DNA of 26,150 nucleotides from a virus (taxonomy: Duplodnaviria; Caudoviricetes). The notes under the pieces were generated by a model that worked only from the letters and a program-made list of their open reading frames with translations, had not been told where the DNA came from and searched no databases. Below, piece by piece: positions 3-26,150 of this stretch (positions within the stretch are counted from its first letter, which is position 1; every line of letters starts with the position of its first letter). The position numbers and the translations under genes were made by a program. Location of the stretch: the IMG/VR virus record IMGVR_UViG_3300001472_000143, positions 1 to 26,150 of that record; one strand, given 5' to 3'.

Positions 3-1355
3 GGTGAAAAGCTAAAACTATTAGCTCATGATGAAAGTGGTAAATGGGAAAGACCTGATAATATATTAAACAACTGGAGAGTTACAAAAACTACATTAAG
101 GTTAGGATCTAGAATTGTAGGTAAATGTATGATGGGCTCAACTTCAAACGCACTAGACAAAGGTGGAAGCAATTTCAAAAAACTATATTACAATTCAAAC
201 GTTACAGAAAGAAATAGAAACGGACAAACATCTTCTGGCCTCTATTCTCTTTTCATCCCTATGGAGTGGAACTACGAAGGATTCATGGATACTCATGGAT
301 CACCTGTCTTCATTAGACAGAAGAGTGGAGTTAAAGGAGCAGATGGTTATAAAATTACAACAGGAGTTATTGAACATTGGCAAAACGAAGTTGAAGGATT
401 AAAAAACGATCAAGACAGTTTAAACGAGTATTATAGACAATTTCCAAGAACTGAAGCTCACGCTTTTAGAGATGAAGCAAAAGATAGTTTATTTAATTTG
501 ACTAAAATATATCAACAAATAGATTTTAATGACGGCTTAAATAACGCAGCTTCTATAACAGTAGGCAACTTTCAATGGCAACAAGGTGTTAAAGATACTA
601 AAGTAGAATTTATGCCTAACAAAAATGGTAGATTTTTAATATCATGGGTGCCACCAGTTAGTTTACAAAACACTATAATAAACAAAAATGGAACTAAATA
701 TCCAGGTAACGAGCATATTGGAGCTTTTGGCTGTGACTCTTACGATATTAGCGGTACTGTTGATGGCCGCGGCTCTAAAGGAGCATTACATGGATTAACT
801 AAGTTTAGCATGGAAGACGCGCCACCTAATCATTTTTTTTTAGAATATATATCAAGACCACAAACAGCCGAGATATTTTTTGAAGATGTTTTAATGGCTT
901 GTGTATTTTATGGTATGCCAATATTAGCTGAAAATAATAAACCTAGATTATTATATTACTTTAAGCGTAGAGGCTATAGAGGTTTTTCAATGAATCGTCC
1001 TGATAAAATTTGGAACAAACTTTCCACAACTGAAAAAGAAATAGGTGGAATACCTAATTCAAGTGAAGATATTAAGCAAGCACATGCTGCTGCTATAGAG
1101 TCTTATATAGAAAACTACGTAGGACTACTAGAAAATAAATATGGAGATATGTATTTTCAAAACACATTAAAAGATTGGAGTGGTTTTAATATAAATAATA
1201 GAACCAAGTTTGATGCTACTATTAGTTCTGGCTTAGCAATTATGGCTTGTAATAAAAATAGATATAAACCAAATCCCGATAAAAAATATCAACCTATAAA
1301 ATTAGGAATAAGTAGATATAATAATTCAGGAACAATTTCAAAAATAATAGAATAG
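3..1355 (+). CDS. terL: Terminase large subunit (partial; begins upstream of the window)
   Basis: The frame of ORF 129..1355 is open back to position 3 (GEKLKLLAHDESGKW...). It shows a Walker B-like LLAHDE (18-35), a coupling motif-like GSTSN and an RNase H-type nuclease motif FGCDSYD, and lies immediately upstream of the portal. The ORF-track start at 129 is internal. Confidence 0.93.
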   Translation, partial: GEKLKLLAHDESGKWERPDNILNNWRVTKTTLRLGSRIVGKCMMGSTSNALDKGGSNFKKLYYNSNVTERNRNGQTSSGLYSLFIPMEWNYEGFMDTHGSPVFIRQKSGVKGADGYKITTGVIEHWQNEVEGLKNDQDSLNEYYRQFPRTEAHAFRDEAKDSLFNLTKIYQQIDFNDGLNNAASITVGNFQWQQGVKDTKVEFMPNKNGRFLISWVPPVSLQNTIINKNGTKYPGNEHIGAFGCDSYDISGTVDGRGSKGALHGLTKFSMEDAPPNHFFLEYISRPQTAEIFFEDVLMACVFYGMPILAENNKPRLLYYFKRRGYRGFSMNRPDKIWNKLSTTEKEIGGIPNSSEDIKQAHAAAIESYIENYVGLLENKYGDMYFQNTLKDWSGFNINNRTKFDATISSGLAIMACNKNRYKPNPDKKYQPIKLGISRYNNSGTISKIIE

Positions 1356-1359
1356 ATAT

Positions 1360-3765
1360 ATGCAAATTTCATACAACACTAACAGTTCTTTTCCTAGTCA
1401 AGTAGTACCAGACGCCGAGAAAGCTACTCTGGAATATGGTCTTGCTGTAGGTAGAGCTATAGAGGGAGAGTGGTTTAGAAACTATAGAGGTGGAGCTGGT
1501 GGTAGTGGTTACGCAATTAATTATAATAATTACCACAATTTAAGACTTTACGCAAGAGGAGAACAACCTGTACAAAAATACAAAGATGAATTAGCTATTA
1601 ATGGAGATTTATCATATTTAAATATAGACTGGAAACCAGTGCCTGTTATTGCTAAATTTGTAGATATAGTTGTTAATGGTATGTCAGAAAAGTCTTATGA
1701 ATTAAAAGCTTTTGCAGTAGATCCATTTTCAATACAACAAAGAACTCAGTATGCTAGAGATTTAATGAGAGATGTTCAAGAAAGAGAATTAGCAGAGCAG
1801 ATAAATCAAACTTTAGGTATAACTATAACAAGTCCTCAGTTTAGAGAATTAGGTTTAGAATCAGACGAAGAAGTTAAATTGCATTTGCAATTAGATTATA
1901 AACAATCTGTTGAAATAGCTGAAGAAGAATTATTAGAAGATGTTTTAAATAGAAATAAATATGAACTAACTAGACGTAGACTAGCTCAAGATTTAACTAT
2001 TTTAGGTATTGGAGCAGTAAAAACAAACTGGAGTAAGGAGAAAGGCATAATAATAGATTATGTTGATCCTGCTACTTTAATATATTCTTATACAGAAGAT
2101 CCTAATTTTGAAGATATATATTATGTTGGTGAAGTTAAAAGCATTAATTTAGCTGATTTAAAAACTCAATTTCCATATTTGTCTGATGAAGAAATGGAGC
2201 AAATACAAAAGTATCCTGGAAATTCAGAATATTTAAGAAATTGGAGTGGTAGAAATGATGAACAAACAGTTCAAGTTGTTTATTTTGAATATAAAACTTA
2301 CTCTGACCAAGTATTTAAAGTTAAAAAAACAGCTACTGGTTTAGAAAAAGCATTAGAGAAACCTGATACTTTTAGCCCACCTGAAAATGAAAACTTTGAA
2401 GTTGTATCAAGAACTATTGAAACACTATATAGTGGCGCTAAAATACTAGGACACCCTATGATGTTGAAATGGGAGTTAGCAGAAAATATGACTAGACCTT
2501 TTGCTGATACTACTCGAGTTAAAATGAATTATAACATATGTGCTCCAAGAATGTACAAAGGTAGAATTGAATCTATAGTTAGTAGAGTAACTGGTTTTGC
2601 TGATATGATACAGTTGACACATTTAAAGATTCAACAAGTATTAGCTAGAATGGTGCCTGATGGTGTGTTTTTAGATATGGATGGTTTAGCAGAAGTTGAC
2701 TTAGGTAATGGAACTAATTATAATCCTGCCGAAGCTTTAAATATGTATTTTCAAACTGGATCTATCGTGGGTAGATCGTTAACTCAAGATGGAGATCCTA
2801 ACAGAGGTAAAGTTCCTATACAAGAATTGCAAACTGGATCTGGCGGAAATAAAATTGGAACTCTAATACAAACTTATCAGTACTACTTACAAATGATAAG
2901 AGACGTAACCGGACTTAACGAAGCAAGAGATGGATCAACTCCAGATAAAGATACTTTAGTAGGTTTACAAAAGCTAGCAGCTAATGCGTCTAATACTGCT
3001 ACGAGGCATTTACAACAAGCAATGTCTTATTTAACTATAAGAACTGCTGAAAACGTTTCTTTAAGAATAAGTGATTCATTAGAATTTCCTTTTACAAAAC
3101 AAGCTTTAGAAAATAGTATATCAAGATACAATTTAGCTACTTTATCAGAAATAAGTAATTTAAATCTTCATGATTTTGGAATATTTATAGAACTAGAACC
3201 AGATGAAGAGCAACAAGCTCAATTAGAACAAAATATACAAATAGCTTTAAAAAGTGGTGGTATTGATCTAGAAGATGCTATAGATCTTAGAGAAATTAAA
3301 AATATTAAGCTAGCAAATCAAATGCTAAAAGAGCGAAGAAGAAGAAAGCAAGAAAGAGATCAAAGAAATCAACAAGCTAATATTCAAGCTCAAGCTGAAG
3401 CTAATGCAAAAGCTTCTGAAGCCTCTGCACTAGCAGAATTGCAAAAGCAACAAGGTATTGCAGAAACAACCGTTAATGTTGAGAGAGCTAAATCACAAAT
3501 GGATATTTCTGAAATGCAACAAAAAGCTGAAATAGATAAGCAATTAATGGAGCTTAAGTTTGGATATGACATGCAGTTAAAGCAGATGGATTTACAAGAA
3601 ATAGCTACAAGAGAAAAATTTATTGAAGATAGAAAAGATGAAAGAACTAAATTAGAAGGTACTCAACAAAGCGAAATGATACAACAAAGAGATATGAATT
3701 TACCTTCTATAGATTTTACCACTGGTAAATCATTAGAAAACAGCGTGCCTGGTGCAGAGCTGTAA
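1360..3765 (+). CDS. Portal protein
   Basis: 801 aa between terL and scaffold/capsid genes. Motifs PVPVIAKFVDIVVNG and MIRDVTGLNEARDG plus a long Gln/Glu-rich C-terminal coiled coil resemble P22/crAss-like portals. Confidence 0.88.
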   Translation: MQISYNTNSSFPSQVVPDAEKATLEYGLAVGRAIEGEWFRNYRGGAGGSGYAINYNNYHNLRLYARGEQPVQKYKDELAINGDLSYLNIDWKPVPVIAKFVDIVVNGMSEKSYELKAFAVDPFSIQQRTQYARDLMRDVQERELAEQINQTLGITITSPQFRELGLESDEEVKLHLQLDYKQSVEIAEEELLEDVLNRNKYELTRRRLAQDLTILGIGAVKTNWSKEKGIIIDYVDPATLIYSYTEDPNFEDIYYVGEVKSINLADLKTQFPYLSDEEMEQIQKYPGNSEYLRNWSGRNDEQTVQVVYFEYKTYSDQVFKVKKTATGLEKALEKPDTFSPPENENFEVVSRTIETLYSGAKILGHPMMLKWELAENMTRPFADTTRVKMNYNICAPRMYKGRIESIVSRVTGFADMIQLTHLKIQQVLARMVPDGVFLDMDGLAEVDLGNGTNYNPAEALNMYFQTGSIVGRSLTQDGDPNRGKVPIQELQTGSGGNKIGTLIQTYQYYLQMIRDVTGLNEARDGSTPDKDTLVGLQKLAANASNTATRHLQQAMSYLTIRTAENVSLRISDSLEFPFTKQALENSISRYNLATLSEISNLNLHDFGIFIELEPDEEQQAQLEQNIQIALKSGGIDLEDAIDLREIKNIKLANQMLKERRRRKQERDQRNQQANIQAQAEANAKASEASALAELQKQQGIAETTVNVERAKSQMDISEMQQKAEIDKQLMELKFGYDMQLKQMDLQEIATREKFIEDRKDERTKLEGTQQSEMIQQRDMNLPSIDFTTGKSLENSVPGAEL

Positions 3766-3768
3766 TTA

Positions 3769-3790
3769 TTAATTATTATATTATATTATG
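3769..3790 (+). promoter_or_regulatory. Leader motif TTAATTATTATATTATATTATG, copy 1, ending in the scaffold start codon
   Basis: Nearly identical to 7532-7558, which carries one extra 5-nt unit. Function is unknown. Confidence 0.5.
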
Positions 3791-4939
3791 TCAGAAACAA
3801 TTCAAGATAAAGAGGCTAAACCTTTAAAGATAAAAAAGCCTTCTTATAAAAAAATAGAAAACAAAGAATACAAATTAGATTTAACTAAAAAACCAGAAGA
3901 TGCCGTTCAAGAGTCAAGCCCAGAGAAAGTGGATGTGGGCGAACGATCCACAGATGGCGAGAAAGTGGGAGAAACACACGAAAAACAAACCACTGCCATT
4001 GAGAGTAAAGAAGAAATAAAATCTCCTATTACAGAAGTAGTAGAAGAAAAAACTGATGATCTTGAAAAGGAAATAAAAGAAGCAAAAAGAGATGAAAAAG
4101 TATTAGGTAAGAAGTTACCTGAAAACATCGAAAAATTAATTTCTTTTATGGAAGATACTGGTGGATCTGTTGAGGATTATGTTAGATTAAATGCTGATTA
4201 CAGCAAAGTAGATAATGATACTTTACTACAAGAGTATTATTCAAAAACAAAGCCACATTTAGATAGAGAAGAAATAAACTTTTTATTAGAAGATAAATTT
4301 TCTTTTGACGAAGATGTGGATGATGAAAAAGAAATTAAATTAAAGCGGTTAGCCGCTAAAGAAGAAATTGCAAAAGCCAAAAACTTTTTGGAAGAAACTA
4401 AGAGTAAATACTACGACGAAATCAAGTTGAGACCCGGCGTAACTCAAGATCAACAAAAAGCAATGGACTTTTTCAATAGATACAACAAAGAACAACAAGT
4501 AGCTGAAAAGCGACACGAGAAGTTTTTAGAAAAAACAAATAACTTATTTTCTGATGAATTTGAAGGTTTCGAGTTTAATCTTGGAGAAAAAAAGTTTAAT
4601 TATAAAGTTCAAAATACATCGAGTGTTGTGGAAAAACAGTCAAACTTAAACACTTTTGTTAAGAAGTTCTTAAACAATGAGGGTGAAGTTGTTGATACTG
4701 TAGGTTATCACAAAGCTATGTACGCTGCGGATAACGCCGATACTATAGCTAATCATTTTTATGAGCAAGGCAAAGCCGACGCTTTAAAAAATGTTATGGC
4801 AAAATCTAAAAATATAACAAACGAACCTAGGCCACAGGCCAATGGAGATGTTTTTATTAATGGATTAAAAGTAAGAGCAATAACGGGCGCAGATAGTTCT
4901 AAGTTGAAATTTAAAGTAAAAAACAAAAACAACAACTAA
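3788..4939 (+). CDS. Capsid scaffolding/assembly protein
   Basis: 383 aa, very Glu/Lys-rich and helical, positioned between portal and major capsid genes. The call rests on composition and synteny. Confidence 0.75.
   Translation: MSETIQDKEAKPLKIKKPSYKKIENKEYKLDLTKKPEDAVQESSPEKVDVGERSTDGEKVGETHEKQTTAIESKEEIKSPITEVVEEKTDDLEKEIKEAKRDEKVLGKKLPENIEKLISFMEDTGGSVEDYVRLNADYSKVDNDTLLQEYYSKTKPHLDREEINFLLEDKFSFDEDVDDEKEIKLKRLAAKEEIAKAKNFLEETKSKYYDEIKLRPGVTQDQQKAMDFFNRYNKEQQVAEKRHEKFLEKTNNLFSDEFEGFEFNLGEKKFNYKVQNTSSVVEKQSNLNTFVKKFLNNEGEVVDTVGYHKAMYAADNADTIANHFYEQGKADALKNVMAKSKNITNEPRPQANGDVFINGLKVRAITGADSSKLKFKVKNKNNN
3900..4019 (+). CDS. Nested 39-aa basic protein in the +1 frame of the scaffold gene (MPFKSQAQRKWMWANDPQMARKWEKHTKNKPLPLRVKKK)
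   Basis: ATG at 3900 and TAA at 4017-4019, with an A-rich leader and A at -3. It coincides with a GC island: 33/60 GC at 3901-3960 versus 11/60 at 3841-3900 and 17/60 at 4021-4080. Confidence 0.72.
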   Translation: MPFKSQAQRKWMWANDPQMARKWEKHTKNKPLPLRVKKK

Positions 4940-4950
4940 AAACATAAAAC

Positions 4951-6444
4951 ATGGCTTTTAATGTAAGCGGGTCTTTTCCTGCATCAATCGTTCCTATGCC
5001 AAAAAAAGTAACTGTACAAGACAATTATATTGACTTTCAGGATGCTAATTTTGACCAATGGACACAACAATATCTACCTGAGCTTTATGAAGCTGAAGTA
5101 GAAAGATACGGAAACCGAACTTTAGGTGGTTTCTTAAGAATGGTAGGCGCTGAAATGCCTATGACATCTGATCAAGTAATTTGGTCTGAACAAAATAGAC
5201 TACACATTGCGTATAATACTGTACAAGTAGCTAACGCTGGTGGTGGTTTTCCTGCTGTTACAGTAACTATTACTCCAGGTGCTAATCCTAATCCAAGTTC
5301 TGGTATTAGAGTTGGTGCTACACTTTTAGTTTCTGATAACGCTACTGGCTTAGTTACTACTAAATTATTAGTAACTGCTTTAGCTGGTAATAATGGATAT
5401 ACTTTAACTTGTCACGCATACGAAGGCGCTGCTTTACCAGCTGCTTTAGTAACTGGTGCTGGTTCTAACAGTTTATTCGTTTATGGTTCTATGTTTCCAA
5501 AAGGAAGTAATGGAATGGCTGGCGCTCTTGAGCCAAGCTTAACTACTTTTAAAAATTCACCAATTATCTTAAAAGATAATTATGAATTAAGTGGTTCTGA
5601 TGCTGCTCAAATTGGCTGGATAGAAGTCGCTACTGAAGACGGAACTTCAGGATACATGTGGTATCTAAAAGCTGAGTCTGAAACTAGATTAAGATTTCAA
5701 GATTATCTAGAAATGGCAATGGTAGAATCTGTACCTAACGCTAATGCTGCTACTTTTGGAGCTAATTTCTTTCCTACTGACGGTGTTGGTGGTGGTGCTA
5801 ATAATGCTGCTATCTACGGAAGTACTGGATTATTCTCTGCTATAGAGACTAATGGAAATGTATATTCTGGTTTTGCTGGAGCTGCTGCTCCTGGTTCTGG
5901 TGCTTTAGGTGATTTCGATGAAATCCTTAAAAACTTAGACAAGCAAGGTGCTATTGAAGAAAATATGTTATTCTTATCAAGATCTACGGCTCTTGATTTT
6001 GATGATATGTTAGCTGCTACTAATGGGTCTTATAACTCAACTCAGTCAGCTTCTTACGGTTTATTTGAAAATGACGGTGATATGGCATTAAACTTTGGAT
6101 TTTCAGGTTTTAGAAGAGGTTCTTATGACTTCTACAAAACTGATTGGAAATATCTAAATGATGCTACTACTAGAGGTCTTGACAAAGAGATTGATGGTGT
6201 AATGGTTCCTGCTGGAACAACTACAGTATACGATCAAATGTTAGGTTCTAACATCAGACGTCCTTTCTTACACGTAAGATATAGAGCTTCTGAAACTGAA
6301 GATAGAAGAATGAAGTCTTGGATCACTGGATCTGTAGGTGGAGCTTTCACATCTGATTTAGATGTAATGAGAGTAAACTTCTTATCTGAAAGATGTTTAG
6401 TTACTCAAGCTGCTAACAATTTCGTATTGTTTAAAGGAGCTTAA
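4951..6444 (+). CDS. Major capsid protein
   Basis: 497 aa following the scaffold and followed by a terminator. Codon choice is strongly biased (GCT/GGT/TCT). The C-terminal FLSERCLVTQAANNF and internal RLRFQDYLEMAM resemble HK97-fold capsid proteins of Bacteroidota podophages. Confidence 0.88.
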   Translation: MAFNVSGSFPASIVPMPKKVTVQDNYIDFQDANFDQWTQQYLPELYEAEVERYGNRTLGGFLRMVGAEMPMTSDQVIWSEQNRLHIAYNTVQVANAGGGFPAVTVTITPGANPNPSSGIRVGATLLVSDNATGLVTTKLLVTALAGNNGYTLTCHAYEGAALPAALVTGAGSNSLFVYGSMFPKGSNGMAGALEPSLTTFKNSPIILKDNYELSGSDAAQIGWIEVATEDGTSGYMWYLKAESETRLRFQDYLEMAMVESVPNANAATFGANFFPTDGVGGGANNAAIYGSTGLFSAIETNGNVYSGFAGAAAPGSGALGDFDEILKNLDKQGAIEENMLFLSRSTALDFDDMLAATNGSYNSTQSASYGLFENDGDMALNFGFSGFRRGSYDFYKTDWKYLNDATTRGLDKEIDGVMVPAGTTTVYDQMLGSNIRRPFLHVRYRASETEDRRMKSWITGSVGGAFTSDLDVMRVNFLSERCLVTQAANNFVLFKGA

Positions 6445-7533: not shown

Positions 7534-7558
7534 AATTATTATATTATATTATATTATG
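7532..7558 (+). promoter_or_regulatory. Leader motif TTAATTATTATATTATATTATATTATG, copy 2
   Basis: Matches 3769-3790 apart from one extra ATTAT unit and ends in the ATG at 7556. Confidence 0.5.
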
Positions 7559-18180: not shown

Positions 18181-20028
18181 ATGAGTTACGAAAAACCAAC
18201 CCAAATATTAGATACTTCTTTAACTCAAGTTGTTAAAGGCTTAGATCAAAATAGAGCTATGCTATTAGCTAAAATTGAAGCTAGAAAAAAAGAAAGACAA
18301 GCTTCTCAAAAAGCTAATTTAAAACAACAAAAGCAAGAAGAAAAAGAAGCTAATGCTAGAAGAAGAAGAGAAGGTACTATTAGAAAAGGTATAGATGACA
18401 ATATAGCTAAGTTTAATTCTAAATTTAGTGATGAGTATTTAACTCTAAATGATGCAACTACTGGCTCTTGGAGCTCTGCTACGGGTGAAGTTTATGATCA
18501 AATAGAAATAACTAAAGATCAATTAGAACAAGATTACGAAGCATATCAAGCAGCTTTATTAAAAGATCCTAATGCATCTCTTCAAGATATTAACCCTATA
18601 TATGAACAAGGTTTTGATATTGAAACTATGTACCATGAAGAAGTAGGAGGTCCGTTAGATGATATTAAAGATGCAATAGAAGCCAACTGGAAAGAAATGG
18701 CTAATGTAGATGAAGGCTCAGAAGAATATATGCAATATAAAAAAAATATAGATGACATATTAAGACAAGCTCCTGGTTTTATAAGTATACTTAACACAAC
18801 GGTAGAAGGAACTTCTACAGCTTGGGATTATAATGGTGATGTAATTGAACCTGCTGCTAACATGCCAGGTCTAATATTATATGACGGAAAGCCTGATTTT
18901 GAACTAAGGCAAGAAGCTGCTAAGATGATTCATCTTAAACAGAAACAAGGTAGATTTAATTATACTTATAAAGATGGAAAATCGTACATGGAATATACAT
19001 CTCCTACGTCTTACAATGGAAAAAATAAACTACTAATAGAAGAAGAAGTTTACATGAACGCTGTTAGGAATGGAGATATGGGTGGACTAATCAACGTTAC
19101 AGATGCTACATTTTTAGAAGAAGTAGTAGAAACTGTTTTTGATGATGGTACAGAAAATCAATATAAGAAACTAGTAACAACTAGTAATCTAAGTGAAACA
19201 GCTACTGATGAAGAAAAAAAGAAAGTTGTTAGACAAAGAATAAAAAATTACGATAACGCAAATAAATTATTACAAACTAAAGTAGATGCTTTTATAGATT
19301 CAAAAGGTTTAGCTAGTAATTATAATCCTAATTTAATACAGAGCAATTGGCAAATGTTAGGTGGTCCAGACGAAAATGAAGCAGGTGGTGAAACAGTTTA
19401 TGAAGGAACACCTGAACAAATTGCAAGAGCTAAAAAATTATTATATGAGCATGTAAAAAGAACTAAGGGTGGAGATACTGGTATAATTGGAAATGGAGTA
19501 ACAGAAACAATTCTTAACGAAGTTGAAAATGAAGATGCTATAGATTTAGCTAGAGGAGAAGGTATTAAGCTAGATGTTAAAGAACTTAACAAGTATCTTC
19601 CAAATCTTCAAAAAACAGCTTCCGGCACTGATGGTAAGGCTGGATACTCTTACGACAATTTATATGCAAACTTTAAATCACTTAAAGCTAATAATGGACA
19701 AGGCGCTTTGGCAGTTTTAAATTCAGGTGGAAATGGAAATTACATAACTGGTGCTGAATTAAAGACTAAATACCCTACTATTGACTTATCTGACATAGAC
19801 GATGCTCAGTTGTATGTATATAAAAGTGGTTCAAATAAGCCTACTAAAGTTAATCCAAAAGTACTTAAAGATTTTGACATATTTTTAAACGAGGTTAATA
19901 AATCAAATAGTTCGATAACAAACAAAAGCCACAACGCAGCTTTAAAGCTTATAGACAGAGATCAAGAAATAGCTAGGTTAGAATCTGATGGGGATTCTAA
20001 TTTACCACCACTGCCTGGCATGGCATAA
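18181..20028 (+). CDS. Putative second internal virion/ejection protein
   Basis: 615 aa with an N-terminal basic coiled coil. The call rests on synteny between the small and giant ejection-type genes; no catalytic motif was recognised. Confidence 0.5.
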   Translation: MSYEKPTQILDTSLTQVVKGLDQNRAMLLAKIEARKKERQASQKANLKQQKQEEKEANARRRREGTIRKGIDDNIAKFNSKFSDEYLTLNDATTGSWSSATGEVYDQIEITKDQLEQDYEAYQAALLKDPNASLQDINPIYEQGFDIETMYHEEVGGPLDDIKDAIEANWKEMANVDEGSEEYMQYKKNIDDILRQAPGFISILNTTVEGTSTAWDYNGDVIEPAANMPGLILYDGKPDFELRQEAAKMIHLKQKQGRFNYTYKDGKSYMEYTSPTSYNGKNKLLIEEEVYMNAVRNGDMGGLINVTDATFLEEVVETVFDDGTENQYKKLVTTSNLSETATDEEKKKVVRQRIKNYDNANKLLQTKVDAFIDSKGLASNYNPNLIQSNWQMLGGPDENEAGGETVYEGTPEQIARAKKLLYEHVKRTKGGDTGIIGNGVTETILNEVENEDAIDLARGEGIKLDVKELNKYLPNLQKTASGTDGKAGYSYDNLYANFKSLKANNGQGALAVLNSGGNGNYITGAELKTKYPTIDLSDIDDAQLYVYKSGSNKPTKVNPKVLKDFDIFLNEVNKSNSSITNKSHNAALKLIDRDQEIARLESDGDSNLPPLPGMA

Positions 20029-20044
20029 TTTAAAATTATAATTA

Positions 20045-20292
20045 ATGAAATATATTTGGAACAACAACGAGTACACTCAAGAAGACATAGACGCTGCTTT
20101 AGAGGCAACAGGACAAGATCTTGATACATATCTATCTGAAAATAAAATAGAGGTCTTAGAAGATGAAAACGAAAAAAAGCTAGTAGATGTTGCAGAGAGT
20201 GCGGATGTAGCATCAGAAACTACAGCACCAGAGAATTTGGATTTAAAATCAGAGGAAGTTTCATCGGAGTCTTCTTCAGAAGATCTTGGTAA
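20045..20292 (+). CDS. Predicted 82-aa transframe product of the giant gene
   Basis: 45 zero-frame codons plus 37 codons in the -1 frame (ASRCCRECGCSIRNYSTREFGFKIRGSFIGVFFRRSW), ending at TAA 20290-20292. It exists only if the frameshift is real. Confidence 0.55.
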
Positions 20293-23200
20293 GAAAGAAG
20301 AGAAGCCAAAGAAAAAAGTAAAATTAAAATTTGATCGTTTACTGAAAGAAGAAGTAAATGTATTAGAAGATATAGATTTAAATCCATCTGTAATAGATAT
20401 AAGTTCTGCAGATAACTTTGTAGAGCTTAATAAAGATAGTGATACAACTTACGCTGGATCTATAGTTAAACTAGAAAAGCTAGACAAAACAAAACAAGAA
20501 CAAGCTACTAAGCAAATATTAGATGTACCTAAAGAATTAGAAAACCAAATAGACGAAAAAGGTTTTTACCAAAAAGACGTAGGTAATTATTATAAAGTTA
20601 CTTATAAAAATGAAGATGGTAATTTAATTCAAAGTGATTTTCCTATTTATATATCAGACGAAAACTTTAAAAGAAATATAACTAATAAATTAAAGTCAGA
20701 TTTAGACGATGTTTTAAATGAAGAAAGAAATTTATTATCTCAAGGTGGAGATGTAAATGAAAACGACATACTTTTATTAGAAGAAAGAAAACAATCACTA
20801 CAAAGTCAATTGATAAACCTTGGCGTAGATGTCAACGATGAATTTGCATGGACTAATCCTAGTGATGCTGAAAGATTAGATGAATTTGAAATTGTAGCAA
20901 AACAAGATCAGTCTATATTAGATGCAAATCCTAATGACAATGCTATTAGAGTAGCTGAGTTAAATTCTGAATTAACAAATTACACTACAGAATTAGAAAA
21001 AAGTACTGATCCTGTAGAACAAAAAAGATTACAAAAAGTAATTGAAGCCACTGGAGAAGAATTAGAAGAAGAAACAATTCTTTTAAATAAAGCTATATAT
21101 ACTTTAGATAAAATTAAAGCTGAAAACAATGTAGTAGACCCCACTGTAAAACCTCTTTCTACTAATTTATTTCATAACAGCAAAATTACTACTTATGAAA
21201 AAGATTATTTTACTTATAAAAATGATAAAGGAGAACATGTAGATCCTACTAAAGTAAAAGATTATAATCTTGAAGTAACAGACAAAGGTGTAAAAAACAT
21301 AAGTAAAATCTCCGCTGAAAATCTTACTAAAAATTTTAATTCAAAATATTTAAATTATGGGCTAGGTGCTGATTACGATAGATCTTTTTTAAATATCGGA
21401 GATAGTGCTATGAATGTTTATAAAAATCCACGTTACAATAAAAGTGGTAGAATAGACTTAGTAGAAACAGCTAAAGCTAATAATATTCCTTATGATACTA
21501 TTATAGCACAAGAAGATTTACAGCAGTATTTAATTGACAAAGGTATTGCTACTACATTAGAAACAGGTAGTTCTTTAATAAAAACAGATAAAGAAGAGAT
21601 AGTGAATCTTATTAACTTTATAGAAAAAAATCAAGGAGATTTTAGAAAAAGTAAAGAGGTTTCACAGTATCAAAAAAGCAATGGTCAAGCAGGTAGAAAT
21701 CAAAAGCTTAAACAATATAATAACGTTATAAAAAAGAGTATAAACGACGTTAAACCTTTGCTTATAAAAAACAATAACTTAATTACTAAATATGCTAATG
21801 ATACAATAGAATTAAAGTCAATTCAAGAACAAGCTGCATTATATAAAAAAGAAACTGAAGCTAAGCTTGCTAAAGTACTAAAACCTAATGAAAAACTAAA
21901 AGAGCAAATACTTAGTAAAGAAAAGTTAGAACAATTAGTAACTAGAGAAGCAAACAAAATACAAGAAATGATTAAAAAAGATCCTTCAAGATATGAAGAA
22001 TTATCTAAAGGATTTGAAAATTGGCAAAATAATCTAGTAAGTAGACAGAAACAAGTAATAGAAGAGTATAATAAAAACATATCTAAAAAAGATACAATAT
22101 TAAAAAGGTTTGACAATAAATTTGATAGTAAATATGTAGATAAATTAACTGCTATAGATGAAAAATTAAAACAGTACCAACAAGACGTTACTAAATTTTC
22201 TACTGCTATAGAACAATCAATGTCGCAAGTTTCTATTTATCAAACTTTAGTTAAAACTTTAGAGTACTCTGACTCTGAATTTAATATAAAATTAGACAGA
22301 ATAAATAAGTCTTTAGAAGGTGAAGGAGATGCTATATCTCAAACATGGAATATATTTACTGAACAGTTTACTAGAACTAGTGTTGGTAGGATAGCTCCTT
22401 TTGAGCTTTTAGCAAGAGGTATTAACGAACTTGGTGGACTAGTAGGTCAATATGAGTTTGGAAGAAAAATAGGTGGCTATACTAGAGAGCAATACGAAAG
22501 AAATAAACAACAATTAGATTTTTCAACAATAGAAAGATCTAATGCTGTGCCTGCAATAGCTAATGTATTTGCTATAAAAGGAGTTTCAGATACATATGCA
22601 AAGGCCTATTCTGAAAGCTGGATGGGTGGAACTGCTCAAGCTTTAACACAAATGGTTGGAGCTTCTATGGGAGCACCAGTAACTGGTCTTTTTGGAGGAT
22701 TTTTTCTTAGCTCTTTACAAAATAGTGAAGACAAGATAATAGAAATGAGAAATGATGCTGTTAGGAATAGAGCTGACGGTGTTAGTAGAGCAGAAGCTAA
22801 AAAACAATTTGATGAAAAGTTTCCTAAATCTTCACAAGTAGCGTATGCATATATTCAAGCAACTGTAGAAGGAGCTTTATCGCATGTCAGTGGTAAGATA
22901 ATGAAAGGCCAAACAGATATGTCTGCTGGTTTAATTAGAAAATTTACTAATGCTACTTTATCTAGACTTGGGTCAAACGCAACAGCTAGAGATATACAGT
23001 TGATGGTTAGAAAACTAGTAGGAGAAACTACAGCTAAATATATGCGCTTTGTTGGTAAAGGAACTACAGCTGGTTTAGATGAAATGCTTGAAGAAACTAC
23101 TCAAGATTTTGCTGCTATGGGAATTGATGCAGCTTTTCAACGAATAACAGAATTAGACTTTGACTTGCCAGATATTACTAGTGAAGAATATGGTAAGCAA

Positions 23201-26150
23201 TTTAAGCATATGCTTTTAGTTAGTTTTACATCTGGCTTTATTGGTGCTTCTTTTTCTACTTTAGCTAATAGAGATTTTCTAGATCCATTAACTGAGTTTG
23301 AAAAATTGGATTTTAGAAGCAGATTACAAGCTAATCAAGAACTTTATGATCAAATTCAAAATATTAAAAGTGATAATGGTTATAGTTCTGAACTAGGTAA
23401 AATAGAAACAAATCTTGAAAATAATGTAATAACTCAAGAAGAAGCTGATCAACAAAGAAAAGAATTAAATGATCTTGTTAGTGATTATAAAGAAATACCT
23501 AATAATTTAAATGGGTCTACTCAATATTTAATTGCTCAGAAAAAACAACAAATAAGAGAATTAAATAATCAATTAGCACAAGGTGGTCTTAGTAATCCAG
23601 CAAATTCTAATATAAAAGAAGCTATAAAAAATATTGAAGGTGAAATATCTGAAATGTCTTCAAACTCTAATAATCAACATAAAGAAGTAGAAGATAAAAC
23701 TGATTTTGCTTTAGCTGCTCAACTTAGGTTAACTGCAAAAACAAAAGGATTAGATCCTTCAACTGCTGTTGTAGAAGTGTTTAATGAAGATAATGCGCAA
23801 GCTATAGCGGATAAATATGGATTAACTGTAGAAGAAGTTTTAAGCCCAGAAGGAGTTTATTTAAAAGATTCTAATAGTATAATAATTTCAGAAAAAGCTT
23901 CTAAAGGAGTTAAAGAGCATGAAGGATCTCATAATTATTGGGATATAGCATTAAATAAAGCTGAAAATAAAAATGCTGTATTTGGTATGGCAGATGCTGT
24001 TATGAAGAAAATGATAGCTTTAGATCCTGCTGCAGCTGATGTTTTGCAGAACCAACTTTTAAAATACTCTAATGACTCTAAGTATACGCAAGAGCAAGTG
24101 GCAGAAGAAGTTATTACATACTATACTCAAATGAAAAAAGCTGGGTTTTTTAAAGAAAACAAAAGTGTTACTCAAGAGATAGCAAGATGGTTTAATAGTT
24201 TGTTACAGTCTATAGGTATTCAAATAGAAGTAAATGCAGAAAATATAGACGGAATATTAGATGATTATCTTGGCAATTTATCTAAAGGTAAACTTAATGC
24301 TGCACAGAGAAGATTAGCTAGAGGCGATGTTAATATAAGTAAAAGTTTACAAGTAGAACCTGGACAAACCTCTATAACTGCTTTGTCTGAAGATACAACC
24401 CCTGTAGTAGATATAAAACAAGATACTCAAACACAAACTAAGCAAGCTGCATCTCTACCTTTAAGTGTAGACACTAAGTCTATGTCAAATGCTTTTGATA
24501 AAAATTTAACTAATGATTTAAAAAGTAATGACGATTTTAAACAAAGTGAAGCAGCTATAGATGCTTTTGATGCTATTGAAAGTAATTCAAATTTTAATAG
24601 TTATATAAATCAATTAATAACTAGAGATAAAAGTTTACAAAGTTTAAATCCAGAAATTAAAGAAGACATTAATAGAAAAATAAAAGAAAATTTACAGTTA
24701 AGAATATTAAAGAATTTTAAACCAGAACTTGACGGTAATAAGCGTAGTTTATTTAGTTTTATATATGGAAAAGCAACTGACAAAGGTATGGGTGGTATTG
24801 CTTTCAGAGCTTTACAGGATATTAAAAAAGACTACGTAAAAACAGCACCAACAACTTCTATAGATAATGTGCTTGATGACACAGGTAGAACAAGAGATTT
24901 TGCTGATACTAGTATAGATATAGAAGGGTCTATAGATGAAAAAGTTGTAATACCAAGATCTAAGATAAAGCAACAAACAGAATTAGTTGACGAGCAAACT
25001 GAAGCTGAATTTGAAACTGCAGCTTTAGAAATAATAGAAGGTGTTATGCCTGACATCGAAGATAAAAACTTTAGATCTTTTATAGATGATGTTTTTGATG
25101 CTAAATTAACTGACAAAGTTAAGAAAAAATTAGGTACTGGAAAACAGTACGAAGAGACTATAAAGAAATTAGCTCCAAAAATGAAGAGCTTATTTCCTAT
25201 ACAATACTTTGTAAAGCTAGAATCACAAACGTCTCCTGAAAATAGAATTTTTACTAAACCTCCAAGGCGTTTAACTAAACAATCTGAAATAGATCAAGCT
25301 GTTTTAAGAGATGATGTTTATTTAGAAAATACAGCACAAGGCGTTAACTTATATGAGTTCAATGATTTTACTCCTAAACAACTAGCAGACTATATTTTAG
25401 CACCACCCGTAAGCCCTACAACTGGCAAGAGAAGTGGCTTAAGAGGTAATAGAAAAACAACAACTGCAAAAGAAATAACAAAAGAAATAGGTAGAGATAT
25501 ATTACCATCCACCATGGATAAGGCTGGTATTGATCCAAGAGATAGATCTAAGGTAGGTGTAAAAATTCAAAGAGATCCTAGAGCTTTAATGGCTAAGGCT
25601 TTTTCATCAGAAGATAGAATTAAGTTAGAAGAAGCAGCAGCGGCTAGTGATATTAACGCTGCTGGTGTTATTGCTGGATTACCGAAAGGAAGTATAACTG
25701 TAACTAACAGTAATAGAGCTTCTAAAATAAAACAAGTTCTTAATGATATTAAAACTTTTGGCTTATCATTAAATGTTTTTGAATCATCTATGCCGGCTGC
25801 AGCAGGCGCTAATAGAGTGCAGGTTAATAAGAAGAAACCAAATGGTGACTTAACACCTGATGCTAAGAAGTTAGATACTTATTTAAAAAATAATAAAATA
25901 AAAGCAAAAGATGGAGTTTACTTTTATGAGCTAACAAATGGAGACTATGTAAAATCTGTGCCAGTTAGAAAAAAAGATGGAAGTATTGGACAAGGAGTAA
26001 CTTATCCTGACGGCGTAACAAACTTAGTTCCAGCAAGAGGAAGGTTATATTATGGAACTACTGATCCTAATTACATCGAAGCTTTAGAAGCGGCTAAAGA
26101 AAATACTAAAAAAGATGCTTTAATACCTAAAAAAGTTTCTGTTATAGAAA
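20045..26150 (+). CDS. Giant internal virion/ejection polyvalent protein (at least 2035 aa, 3' truncated) with a zincin domain
   Basis: Translated by hand from ATG 20045 (MKYIWNNNEYTQEDIDAALE...) with no in-frame stop to the window end. It contains coiled coils, Gly-rich hydrophobic segments (22619-22717, 23210-23266), HEGSH at 23918-23932 and a downstream EE at 24104-24109. Confidence 0.9.
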   Translation, partial: MKYIWNNNEYTQEDIDAALEATGQDLDTYLSENKIEVLEDENEKKLVDVAESADVASETTAPENLDLKSEEVSSESSSEDLGKKEEKPKKKVKLKFDRLLKEEVNVLEDIDLNPSVIDISSADNFVELNKDSDTTYAGSIVKLEKLDKTKQEQATKQILDVPKELENQIDEKGFYQKDVGNYYKVTYKNEDGNLIQSDFPIYISDENFKRNITNKLKSDLDDVLNEERNLLSQGGDVNENDILLLEERKQSLQSQLINLGVDVNDEFAWTNPSDAERLDEFEIVAKQDQSILDANPNDNAIRVAELNSELTNYTTELEKSTDPVEQKRLQKVIEATGEELEEETILLNKAIYTLDKIKAENNVVDPTVKPLSTNLFHNSKITTYEKDYFTYKNDKGEHVDPTKVKDYNLEVTDKGVKNISKISAENLTKNFNSKYLNYGLGADYDRSFLNIGDSAMNVYKNPRYNKSGRIDLVETAKANNIPYDTIIAQEDLQQYLIDKGIATTLETGSSLIKTDKEEIVNLINFIEKNQGDFRKSKEVSQYQKSNGQAGRNQKLKQYNNVIKKSINDVKPLLIKNNNLITKYANDTIELKSIQEQAALYKKETEAKLAKVLKPNEKLKEQILSKEKLEQLVTREANKIQEMIKKDPSRYEELSKGFENWQNNLVSRQKQVIEEYNKNISKKDTILKRFDNKFDSKYVDKLTAIDEKLKQYQQDVTKFSTAIEQSMSQVSIYQTLVKTLEYSDSEFNIKLDRINKSLEGEGDAISQTWNIFTEQFTRTSVGRIAPFELLARGINELGGLVGQYEFGRKIGGYTREQYERNKQQLDFSTIERSNAVPAIANVFAIKGVSDTYAKAYSESWMGGTAQALTQMVGASMGAPVTGLFGGFFLSSLQNSEDKIIEMRNDAVRNRADGVSRAEAKKQFDEKFPKSSQVAYAYIQATVEGALSHVSGKIMKGQTDMSAGLIRKFTNATLSRLGSNATARDIQLMVRKLVGETTAKYMRFVGKGTTAGLDEMLEETTQDFAAMGIDAAFQRITELDFDLPDITSEEYGKQFKHMLLVSFTSGFIGASFSTLANRDFLDPLTEFEKLDFRSRLQANQELYDQIQNIKSDNGYSSELGKIETNLENNVITQEEADQQRKELNDLVSDYKEIPNNLNGSTQYLIAQKKQQIRELNNQLAQGGLSNPANSNIKEAIKNIEGEISEMSSNSNNQHKEVEDKTDFALAAQLRLTAKTKGLDPSTAVVEVFNEDNAQAIADKYGLTVEEVLSPEGVYLKDSNSIIISEKASKGVKEHEGSHNYWDIALNKAENKNAVFGMADAVMKKMIALDPAAADVLQNQLLKYSNDSKYTQEQVAEEVITYYTQMKKAGFFKENKSVTQEIARWFNSLLQSIGIQIEVNAENIDGILDDYLGNLSKGKLNAAQRRLARGDVNISKSLQVEPGQTSITALSEDTTPVVDIKQDTQTQTKQAASLPLSVDTKSMSNAFDKNLTNDLKSNDDFKQSEAAIDAFDAIESNSNFNSYINQLITRDKSLQSLNPEIKEDINRKIKENLQLRILKNFKPELDGNKRSLFSFIYGKATDKGMGGIAFRALQDIKKDYVKTAPTTSIDNVLDDTGRTRDFADTSIDIEGSIDEKVVIPRSKIKQQTELVDEQTEAEFETAALEIIEGVMPDIEDKNFRSFIDDVFDAKLTDKVKKKLGTGKQYEETIKKLAPKMKSLFPIQYFVKLESQTSPENRIFTKPPRRLTKQSEIDQAVLRDDVYLENTAQGVNLYEFNDFTPKQLADYILAPPVSPTTGKRSGLRGNRKTTTAKEITKEIGRDILPSTMDKAGIDPRDRSKVGVKIQRDPRALMAKAFSSEDRIKLEEAAAASDINAAGVIAGLPKGSITVTNSNRASKIKQVLNDIKTFGLSLNVFESSMPAAAGANRVQVNKKKPNGDLTPDAKKLDTYLKNNKIKAKDGVYFYELTNGDYVKSVPVRKKDGSIGQGVTYPDGVTNLVPARGRLYYGTTDPNYIEALEAAKENTKKDALIPKKVSVIE
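20173..20228 (+). promoter_or_regulatory. Candidate -1 programmed ribosomal frameshift signal
   Basis: In-frame A_AAA_AAG (20173-20179), spacer CTAGTA, and a 9-bp stem GATGTTGCA (20186-20194)/TGTAGCATC (20206-20214). The loop GTGC (20199-20202) is complementary to GCAC (20225-20228). Confidence 0.7.

Follow-up and report, generated by a model that had tools for sequence, protein, structure and literature searches.

Several small phage genes are known to be nested out of frame within larger ones, as exemplified by phiX174 E inside the scaffolding gene D and lambda Rz1 inside Rz, and each of these textbook examples is tied to one host gene. The gene described here resembles E and Rz1 in being a small gene wholly contained in a larger one, in the +1 frame and with its own start, and its host gene, like that of E, is a scaffolding gene, although here only presumed to be so. 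In marked contrast, E and Rz1, each with its single host gene, function in lysis and have membrane or lipoprotein features, whereas the present product (the MPFKS peptide) is soluble and basic and occurs in at least three host contexts without detected homology, as well as free-standing and fused. An embedded spanin of the Rz1 type was considered and rejected, as the peptide studied here has neither Cys nor a hydrophobic signal and the host protein is acidic and soluble.

Among small phage head proteins, the T4 internal proteins IPI–III are small, basic, dispensable, and variable, with a common N-terminal targeting peptide placed on unrelated bodies; this capsid-targeting sequence comprises 10–19 residues and is cleaved by gp21 (PMC9026906). 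The MPFKS peptide is likewise small and basic, and the same N-terminal stretch stands at the front of otherwise unrelated proteins (MP is the start of 49 of the 50 long representatives). It differs from the T4 sequence in having a much longer module, of ~25 residues, which is predicted to form a helical hairpin. Searches of PDB, Pfam, and NCBIfam gave no match of the family to internal proteins of the T4 type, and T4 serves as the leading analogy, implying neither membership nor homology. The capsid accessory protein gp4 of Patience and Adjutor, a small peptide forming a helix inside an HK97-type capsid (PMC11965321), was rejected as a homologue, since neither peptide profile matched it among the PDB sequences at E ≤ 10.

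The DNA analyzed (the window, 26,150 nucleotides) is a 26-kb fragment of the IMG/VR type, about 43% complete, carrying terminase, portal, and capsid genes, a 383-aa ORF, and further virion genes. Judged from the capsid protein, its closest cultured relatives are Flavobacteriia phages (Panino, 44%; Elemovirus, 41%; phi38:1/Calle, 36%). The relevant features are:

3..1355, + strand: terminase large subunit gene, 5' truncated (phrog_6681, E 1e-105; context)
1360..3765, + strand: portal gene (phrog_6547, E 2e-141; context)
3788..4939, + strand: host gene of 383 aa, presumed scaffold/core protein, between the portal and capsid genes
3884..3899, + strand: A-rich leader of the nested gene, with A at −3, −6, and −11 to −13; unstructured
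3900..4019, + strand: nested gene in the +1 frame, encoding a basic peptide of 39 aa (MPFKS family, PHROG 1375-like), ATG start and TAA stop
3901..3960, no strand: GC island from dual coding (GC content and re-coding trials)
4951..6444, + strand: major capsid protein gene (phrog_13704, virion structural protein; the Calle_1 homologue is annotated as major capsid protein)

The host protein consists of a variable, acidic N-terminal region of ~105 residues and a conserved C-terminal core, with conservation beginning near residue 110, and the nested gene falls at residues 38–77. No PHROG or Pfam family matched this protein, and no PHROG scaffold family matched any of 37 members; the homologues in Elemovirus and Calle_1 are annotated as 'structural protein'. 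The scaffold label is thus presumptive, being based on the portal and capsid neighbors and on these annotations. Near-identical TTATATTATATT leaders are found at 3766–3787, before the scaffold-like gene, and at about 7536–7555, before a 265-aa gene; the same leader is conserved ahead of the scaffold starts in relatives and is possibly a late promoter or initiation element.

A first-pass annotation, made from the letters of the window, had described a 39-aa +1 ORF with its own A-rich leader, lying in a GC island where the host codons shift to G/C endings, and a basic peptide with three Trp opposite an acidic host frame. Each of these observations was reproduced. The ORF (3900–4019) lies wholly inside the 383-aa ORF (3788–4939) in the +1 frame, and the peptide contains 12 K/R, 2 D/E, and 3 W, as compared with 12 D/E in the host frame over the same stretch. 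GC content by 60-mer is 0.18 (3841–3900), 0.55 (3901–3960), 0.37 (3961–4020), and 0.28 (4021–4080); 3901–3960 is the top of 435 non-overlapping 60-mers of the window and the sole one reaching 0.55. In the host frame, GC3 reaches 0.46 for the first 24 codons of the overlap, as against 0.24 for the remainder of the gene and 0.16 for the other coding stretches of the window. When the host residues were re-coded with the genome codon usage, a GC content of at least 0.55 arose in 1 of 20,000 trials, and an open ATG-led 39-codon frame in 4.8% of trials; the composition is therefore the stronger evidence, and the open frame as such needs comparative support. As background, the 7,707 other codons of the window contain two +1-frame ATG ORFs of at least 36 codons; other ATG-led +1 ORFs within window genes are seen at 19574–19720 (48 codons) and 688–798 (36 codons).

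Relatives of the scaffold-like gene were sampled with the host protein from 10 of the 64 parts of the viral collection, using search words outside the overlap, and the best 80 of 592 were compared. The linker of 62 of these 80 loci contains an ATG-led +1 ORF starting with MP[FYL][KQ], in four allele types; the start and the open frame, whose loss in related genes (together with a lack of homologues) the first-pass annotation had named as evidence to the contrary, are kept there. The remaining 18 comprise two loci with ACG or TTG starts, four with a different open +1 frame, one fused (L055), one truncated, and ten without the nested gene, for which no family match was found elsewhere in their contigs (8–38% complete). 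Selection was assessed over codons 2–24 for the three allele types without gaps, in 25 non-overlapping sequence pairs (of 60 overlap sequences, 51 were distinct), leaving out three Cys-type alleles, L050, and L055. In the overlap, pN/pS was 0.22 in the peptide frame versus 1.48 in the host frame, whereas in the conserved core it was 0.23 in the host frame versus 1.23 in the +1 frame. At host codon positions 1/2/3, the overlap has 130/66/54 differences and the core has 667/435/1581, i.e. the overlap variation concentrates on host position 1, the wobble position of the peptide. This two-frame comparison, which had been suggested as a check, shows a constrained peptide frame and a relaxed host frame. 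As far as sequences can tell, the host protein yields to the peptide within the overlap, and the nested frame is almost certainly a case of true dual coding with purifying selection on the +1 frame. The acidic 'DA[VI]QE' motif in the structural proteins is the shadow of the other frame.

Some loci deviate from this arrangement. At the same site and with a similar A-rich leader, L003:2529, L066:1051, L077:1317, and L078:2529 have a different basic +1 ORF of 42–43 codons, for which the difference counts were mixed and which is either a relic or a further allele or another nested gene. In L041, and in no other locus, the nested gene is followed by one more +1 ORF, which has 39 codons (at 2691). 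In L055 (2363–3403) and P0139, the peptide is in frame with the scaffold core and the scaffold N-terminus stops, an arrangement that represents either a natural fusion or a single-base error. These two cases, together with an in-frame X XXY YYZ heptamer in 36 of 63 peptides, would suit the view that the +1 frame mainly yields a peptide–scaffold fusion through a −1 frameshift into the host frame. We regard this as very improbable, because the fusion occurs in 1 of the 80 loci (best 80 of 592), where single indels or assembly errors suffice, Lys-rich A-runs readily give such heptamers (none was seen in the peptide of the window), 62 loci retain the stop, and most members of the family are stand-alone peptides.

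The nested start has A at −3, as do 10 of the 13 other starts in the window, and its leader (3884..3899) folds with −0.3 kcal/mol, structure being no greater than in shuffles. When 46 nested starts were compared with 152 out-of-frame linker ATGs, A was found at −3 in 87% versus 39%, at −6 in 83% versus 43%, and at −13 in 85% versus 32%, although the nested starts are of common ancestry and the significance of the enrichment is overstated if they are taken as independent. According to PMC6847099, A at these positions raises initiation in Flavobacterium johnsoniae, and the nested leader carries the A-rich start signal of Bacteroidota. Leaders of the GGAG/GGAGG type, in place of the A-rich one, precede the three copies found within unrelated giant genes (see below). 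One RNA-library contig covers the nested ORF, with an in-frame 3-base insertion and with substitutions at 3920 and 3924 (the two listed in the ORF), both synonymous for the peptide and non-synonymous for the host; it may be DNA, is no proof of transcription, and says nothing on strand, frame, or level. It might be argued from the 4.8% of re-codings with an open frame that the ORF is a by-product of the host protein sequence, or else an untranslated relic. This is hardly credible, being contradicted by purifying selection on the +1 frame and not on the host frame, by the enrichment of the start signal at nested ATGs, and by the existence of free-standing genes of the family, in which the −1 frame is open in 4 of 73 copies only. 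For the latter reason, nesting needed recoding.

The profile search with the peptide gave 924 proteins similar to it in length, and 3,672 representatives of clusters; the small, often stand-alone family that the first-pass annotation had named therefore exists. Residues 3–28 of the nested peptide match positions 17–42 of the phrog_1375 profile (E 2.6e-5), a partial match of 26 of 70 positions. Many relatives also match PHROG 1375 weakly, several alleles and the elemo copy fall short of E 0.01, and Send513 gp7 matches at E 2e-18. The profile of PHROG 1375, a family of unknown function, has an N-terminal extension and carries no function or nesting annotation. Searches of Pfam, NCBIfam, and PDB sequences gave no relative of the family, the sole low E-value resulting from summed repeats of a designed beta-propeller and not being meaningful, and Foldseek with the peptide model gave no match at E ≤ 0.001. 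The predicted model of the L012 homologue has helices at 6–15 and 17–27 (mean pLDDT 77), and the peptide is thus predicted to consist of a conserved ~25-residue module forming a two-helix hairpin, followed by a loose Lys/Arg tail. An alignment of 110 sequences shows no variation at M1, P2, Q8, and P17, partly as a consequence of the choice of members. DUF3008 (PF11450) was tried and rejected, as neither the peptide nor 39 + 56 + 64 relatives matched it in Pfam above the gathering threshold; clusters of DUF3008/PF11450 are the nearest named ones in the ESM Atlas (0.84–0.85; family on 14–15% of members), which is a lead only.

Two sequence features vary among the nested peptides. An SPx[KR][MLF]-like motif is seen in the tails of 34 of 63 (L005, L025, L037, L041, and others) and also in small ORFs of L225, and is absent from the peptide of the window. 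In L020, L038, L043, L231, and L232, the allele has two conserved Cys flanking the interhelix turn, possibly forming a disulfide; this Cys-type allele is present in both scaffold and giant host genes.

To survey the placement of the gene, a DNA pattern derived from the peptide was applied to 6 of the 64 parts of the viral collection, giving 120 viral loci. The gene is not nested in 77 of them and nested in 43, every one in the +1 frame: 31 in a scaffold-like gene and 12 in other large genes. Wider DNA, obtained for nine of these 12, revealed giant genes of 1,710–3,571 aa that close the virion operon. Eight giant-nested records share the capsid protein of the window (54–57%), and seven of the eight have a scaffold homologue, none of which contains a nested ORF. 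The records of the giants G009, G037, and G039 are without that capsid protein and have phrog_11358 in common, with an additional match to a DarB-like family in G037; these giants show no BLAST similarity to those of the Flavobacteriia type. The giant gene of the window itself (20045–26149, >2,035 aa) was compared with eleven other giant genes by BLAST, which showed no similarity; it matches no PHROG family, and an MPFKS copy is absent from the part present. Among cultured phages, elemoE has the gene in +1 inside the 3,694-aa gp18 (NC_055854.1, nested ATG at 52512), and 68 elemo records match a related allele; the nested gene was not found in Panino, Calle_1, or phi18:3. As had been anticipated, annotation misses the gene, which is unannotated in RefSeq Elemovirus and in Synechococcus phage S-CBS2. 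When 39 records were searched whole, exactly one match was found in 25, including 9 of 9 near-complete ones, and none in 14 fragments.

In a tree of the scaffold cores (FastTree, 97 sequences, read by eye), the scaffold-nested genes constitute one clade with a support of 0.98, and the giant-nested records lie outside. Scaffold cores 96–98% identical in DNA bear different alleles or none, with the divergence limited to the peptide stretch, as in L024 versus L048 and L058 versus L070. These comparisons show exchange and loss of alleles among near-identical scaffold genes, and the gene likely moves as a dual-coded cassette. In five pairs of giant-gene copies, the differences lean to the third positions of the peptide (17/7/21), although they are few and divergent and of little weight. 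The first-pass annotation had called the gene overprinted: dual coding holds, as described above, whereas de novo birth in the scaffold gene is unlikely, because the family is far wider and sister lineages nest the gene in another host gene. The sequences would fit both a single nesting event followed by movement and several independent ones.

Free-standing copies are often found near head genes. For 50 free-standing loci, the nearest large ORF encodes a portal, terminase, capsid, scaffold, or minor-head protein in 17 and GroES in 9, counted without a background rate, with neighbors up to 3 kb away and many loci being kin; some copies neighbor a DNA polymerase or ribonucleotide reductase gene. 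Send513 gp7, from a cluster R mycobacteriophage, directly follows the portal gene. In S-CBS2 (L082:4001–4111), the unannotated free-standing copy lies downstream of the capsid gene, where several small basic genes are clustered. Adjacency to terminase and portal genes would suit a helper in packaging or assembly, one binding transiently to DNA ends, the portal, or terminase and not retained, as would three Acidobacteriaceae copies just upstream of Ku on the same strand (at about 80 bases), which probably reflect one event because their peptides are near-identical. Such a helper is nevertheless improbable: cargo would better account for the copies within the giant gene that closes the virion operon and for those fused to long low-complexity tails, and the loss in close relatives is against a core packaging role.

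Among the best 150 representatives, 50 have at least 100 aa, and these include the 49 beginning with MP; a third of the best representatives are thus longer proteins headed by the module. A few of them have ParB-like, cupin, AAA, or DUF5661 domains, and most are without a family. The same module is found in phages of Flavobacterium, Synechococcus, Streptomyces, and Mycobacterium. Prokaryotic genomes gave 39 matches, 16 of which (L236, L255, L258, and 13 further loci) belong to Acidobacteriaceae/Terriglobales, including one contig with two copies (L245 and L262); 31 scanned neighbors of the Acidobacteriaceae/Terriglobales copies gave no match to a phage structural family. A capsid-specific module fails to explain these chromosomal copies because of their non-phage surroundings, and they favor general DNA binding and argue against a purely capsid role. 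The cellular copies, like the alternative nesting sites, the allele exchange, and the N-terminal fusions, had gone unseen in the first-pass annotation.

Diversity and loss of alleles are common in host-interaction genes. The deeply different or missing alleles in near-identical scaffold cores and the chromosomal copies in Acidobacteriaceae may accordingly be read in another way, namely that the late-made peptide acts on the host cell, as a nucleic-acid or ribosome binder, a counter-defense protein, or a superinfection factor, and is not a virion part, nesting merely timing its expression. Allele exchange and loss keep such a role alive, and we consider it worthy of serious attention. It is unlikely, however, given that the same module occurs in phages of very different hosts, mostly among head genes, that its position at the N-terminus of many unrelated tails is what a tag would show, and that the family has no NCBIfam or Pfam match.

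By analogy with the T4 proteins, it is most likely that the peptide is a dispensable, head-internal, DNA-associated protein, the N-terminal module of which may be a loading tag. The scaffold-like and giant nesting hosts are both virion genes. In the mechanism that we propose, translation of the peptide would begin at its own A-rich signal, on the late mRNA of the head genes, and its 39 residues would be packed within the head, attached to DNA or to the inside of the prohead, with the Lys/Arg tail binding DNA and the conserved N-terminal module docking in the assembling head. The same module would also load the many unrelated proteins that start with it, in a manner similar to the T4 capsid-targeting sequence. 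Nesting in a variable, probably disordered linker would couple the synthesis to head or ejection genes at a low cost for the host protein, and the peptide would be accessory, not essential. As to its origin, an older free-standing gene has likely been absorbed into the linker by recoding to become the present mobile dual-coded cassette. This mechanism as a whole, a selected second gene with its own A-rich start encoding a basic peptide bound to packed DNA or the prohead, stands at about even chances. A broader proposal remains tentative and is rather doubtful at present: that many lineages of tailed phages have the MPFKS module in common as a tag for capsid loading, and that the gene is a portable dual-coded cassette in at least three unrelated virion genes, recoded to give an acidic spacer in its −1 frame, with a start suited to each type of host and swaps of whole alleles among near-identical phages, unseen by gene callers.

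Nested phage genes have long been known, and the new part is one family that spans several host genes and is also free-standing and fused; searches of a paper collection of limited coverage gave no description of such a family. The gene is found as a single copy in the records searched, and its nested forms (in several virion genes without relation to each other), free-standing forms, and fused forms directly display how an existing gene can turn into an overlapping one and change its host gene. Annotation thus overlooks a conserved protein in a very abundant group of marine phages. With carriers in culture, namely Elemovirus (nested) and cluster R mycobacteriophages (free-standing), experiments can address the function of this protein directly. 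Should the module indeed load cargo into heads, its phylogenetic range would make it a widespread tag on a par with that of T4.
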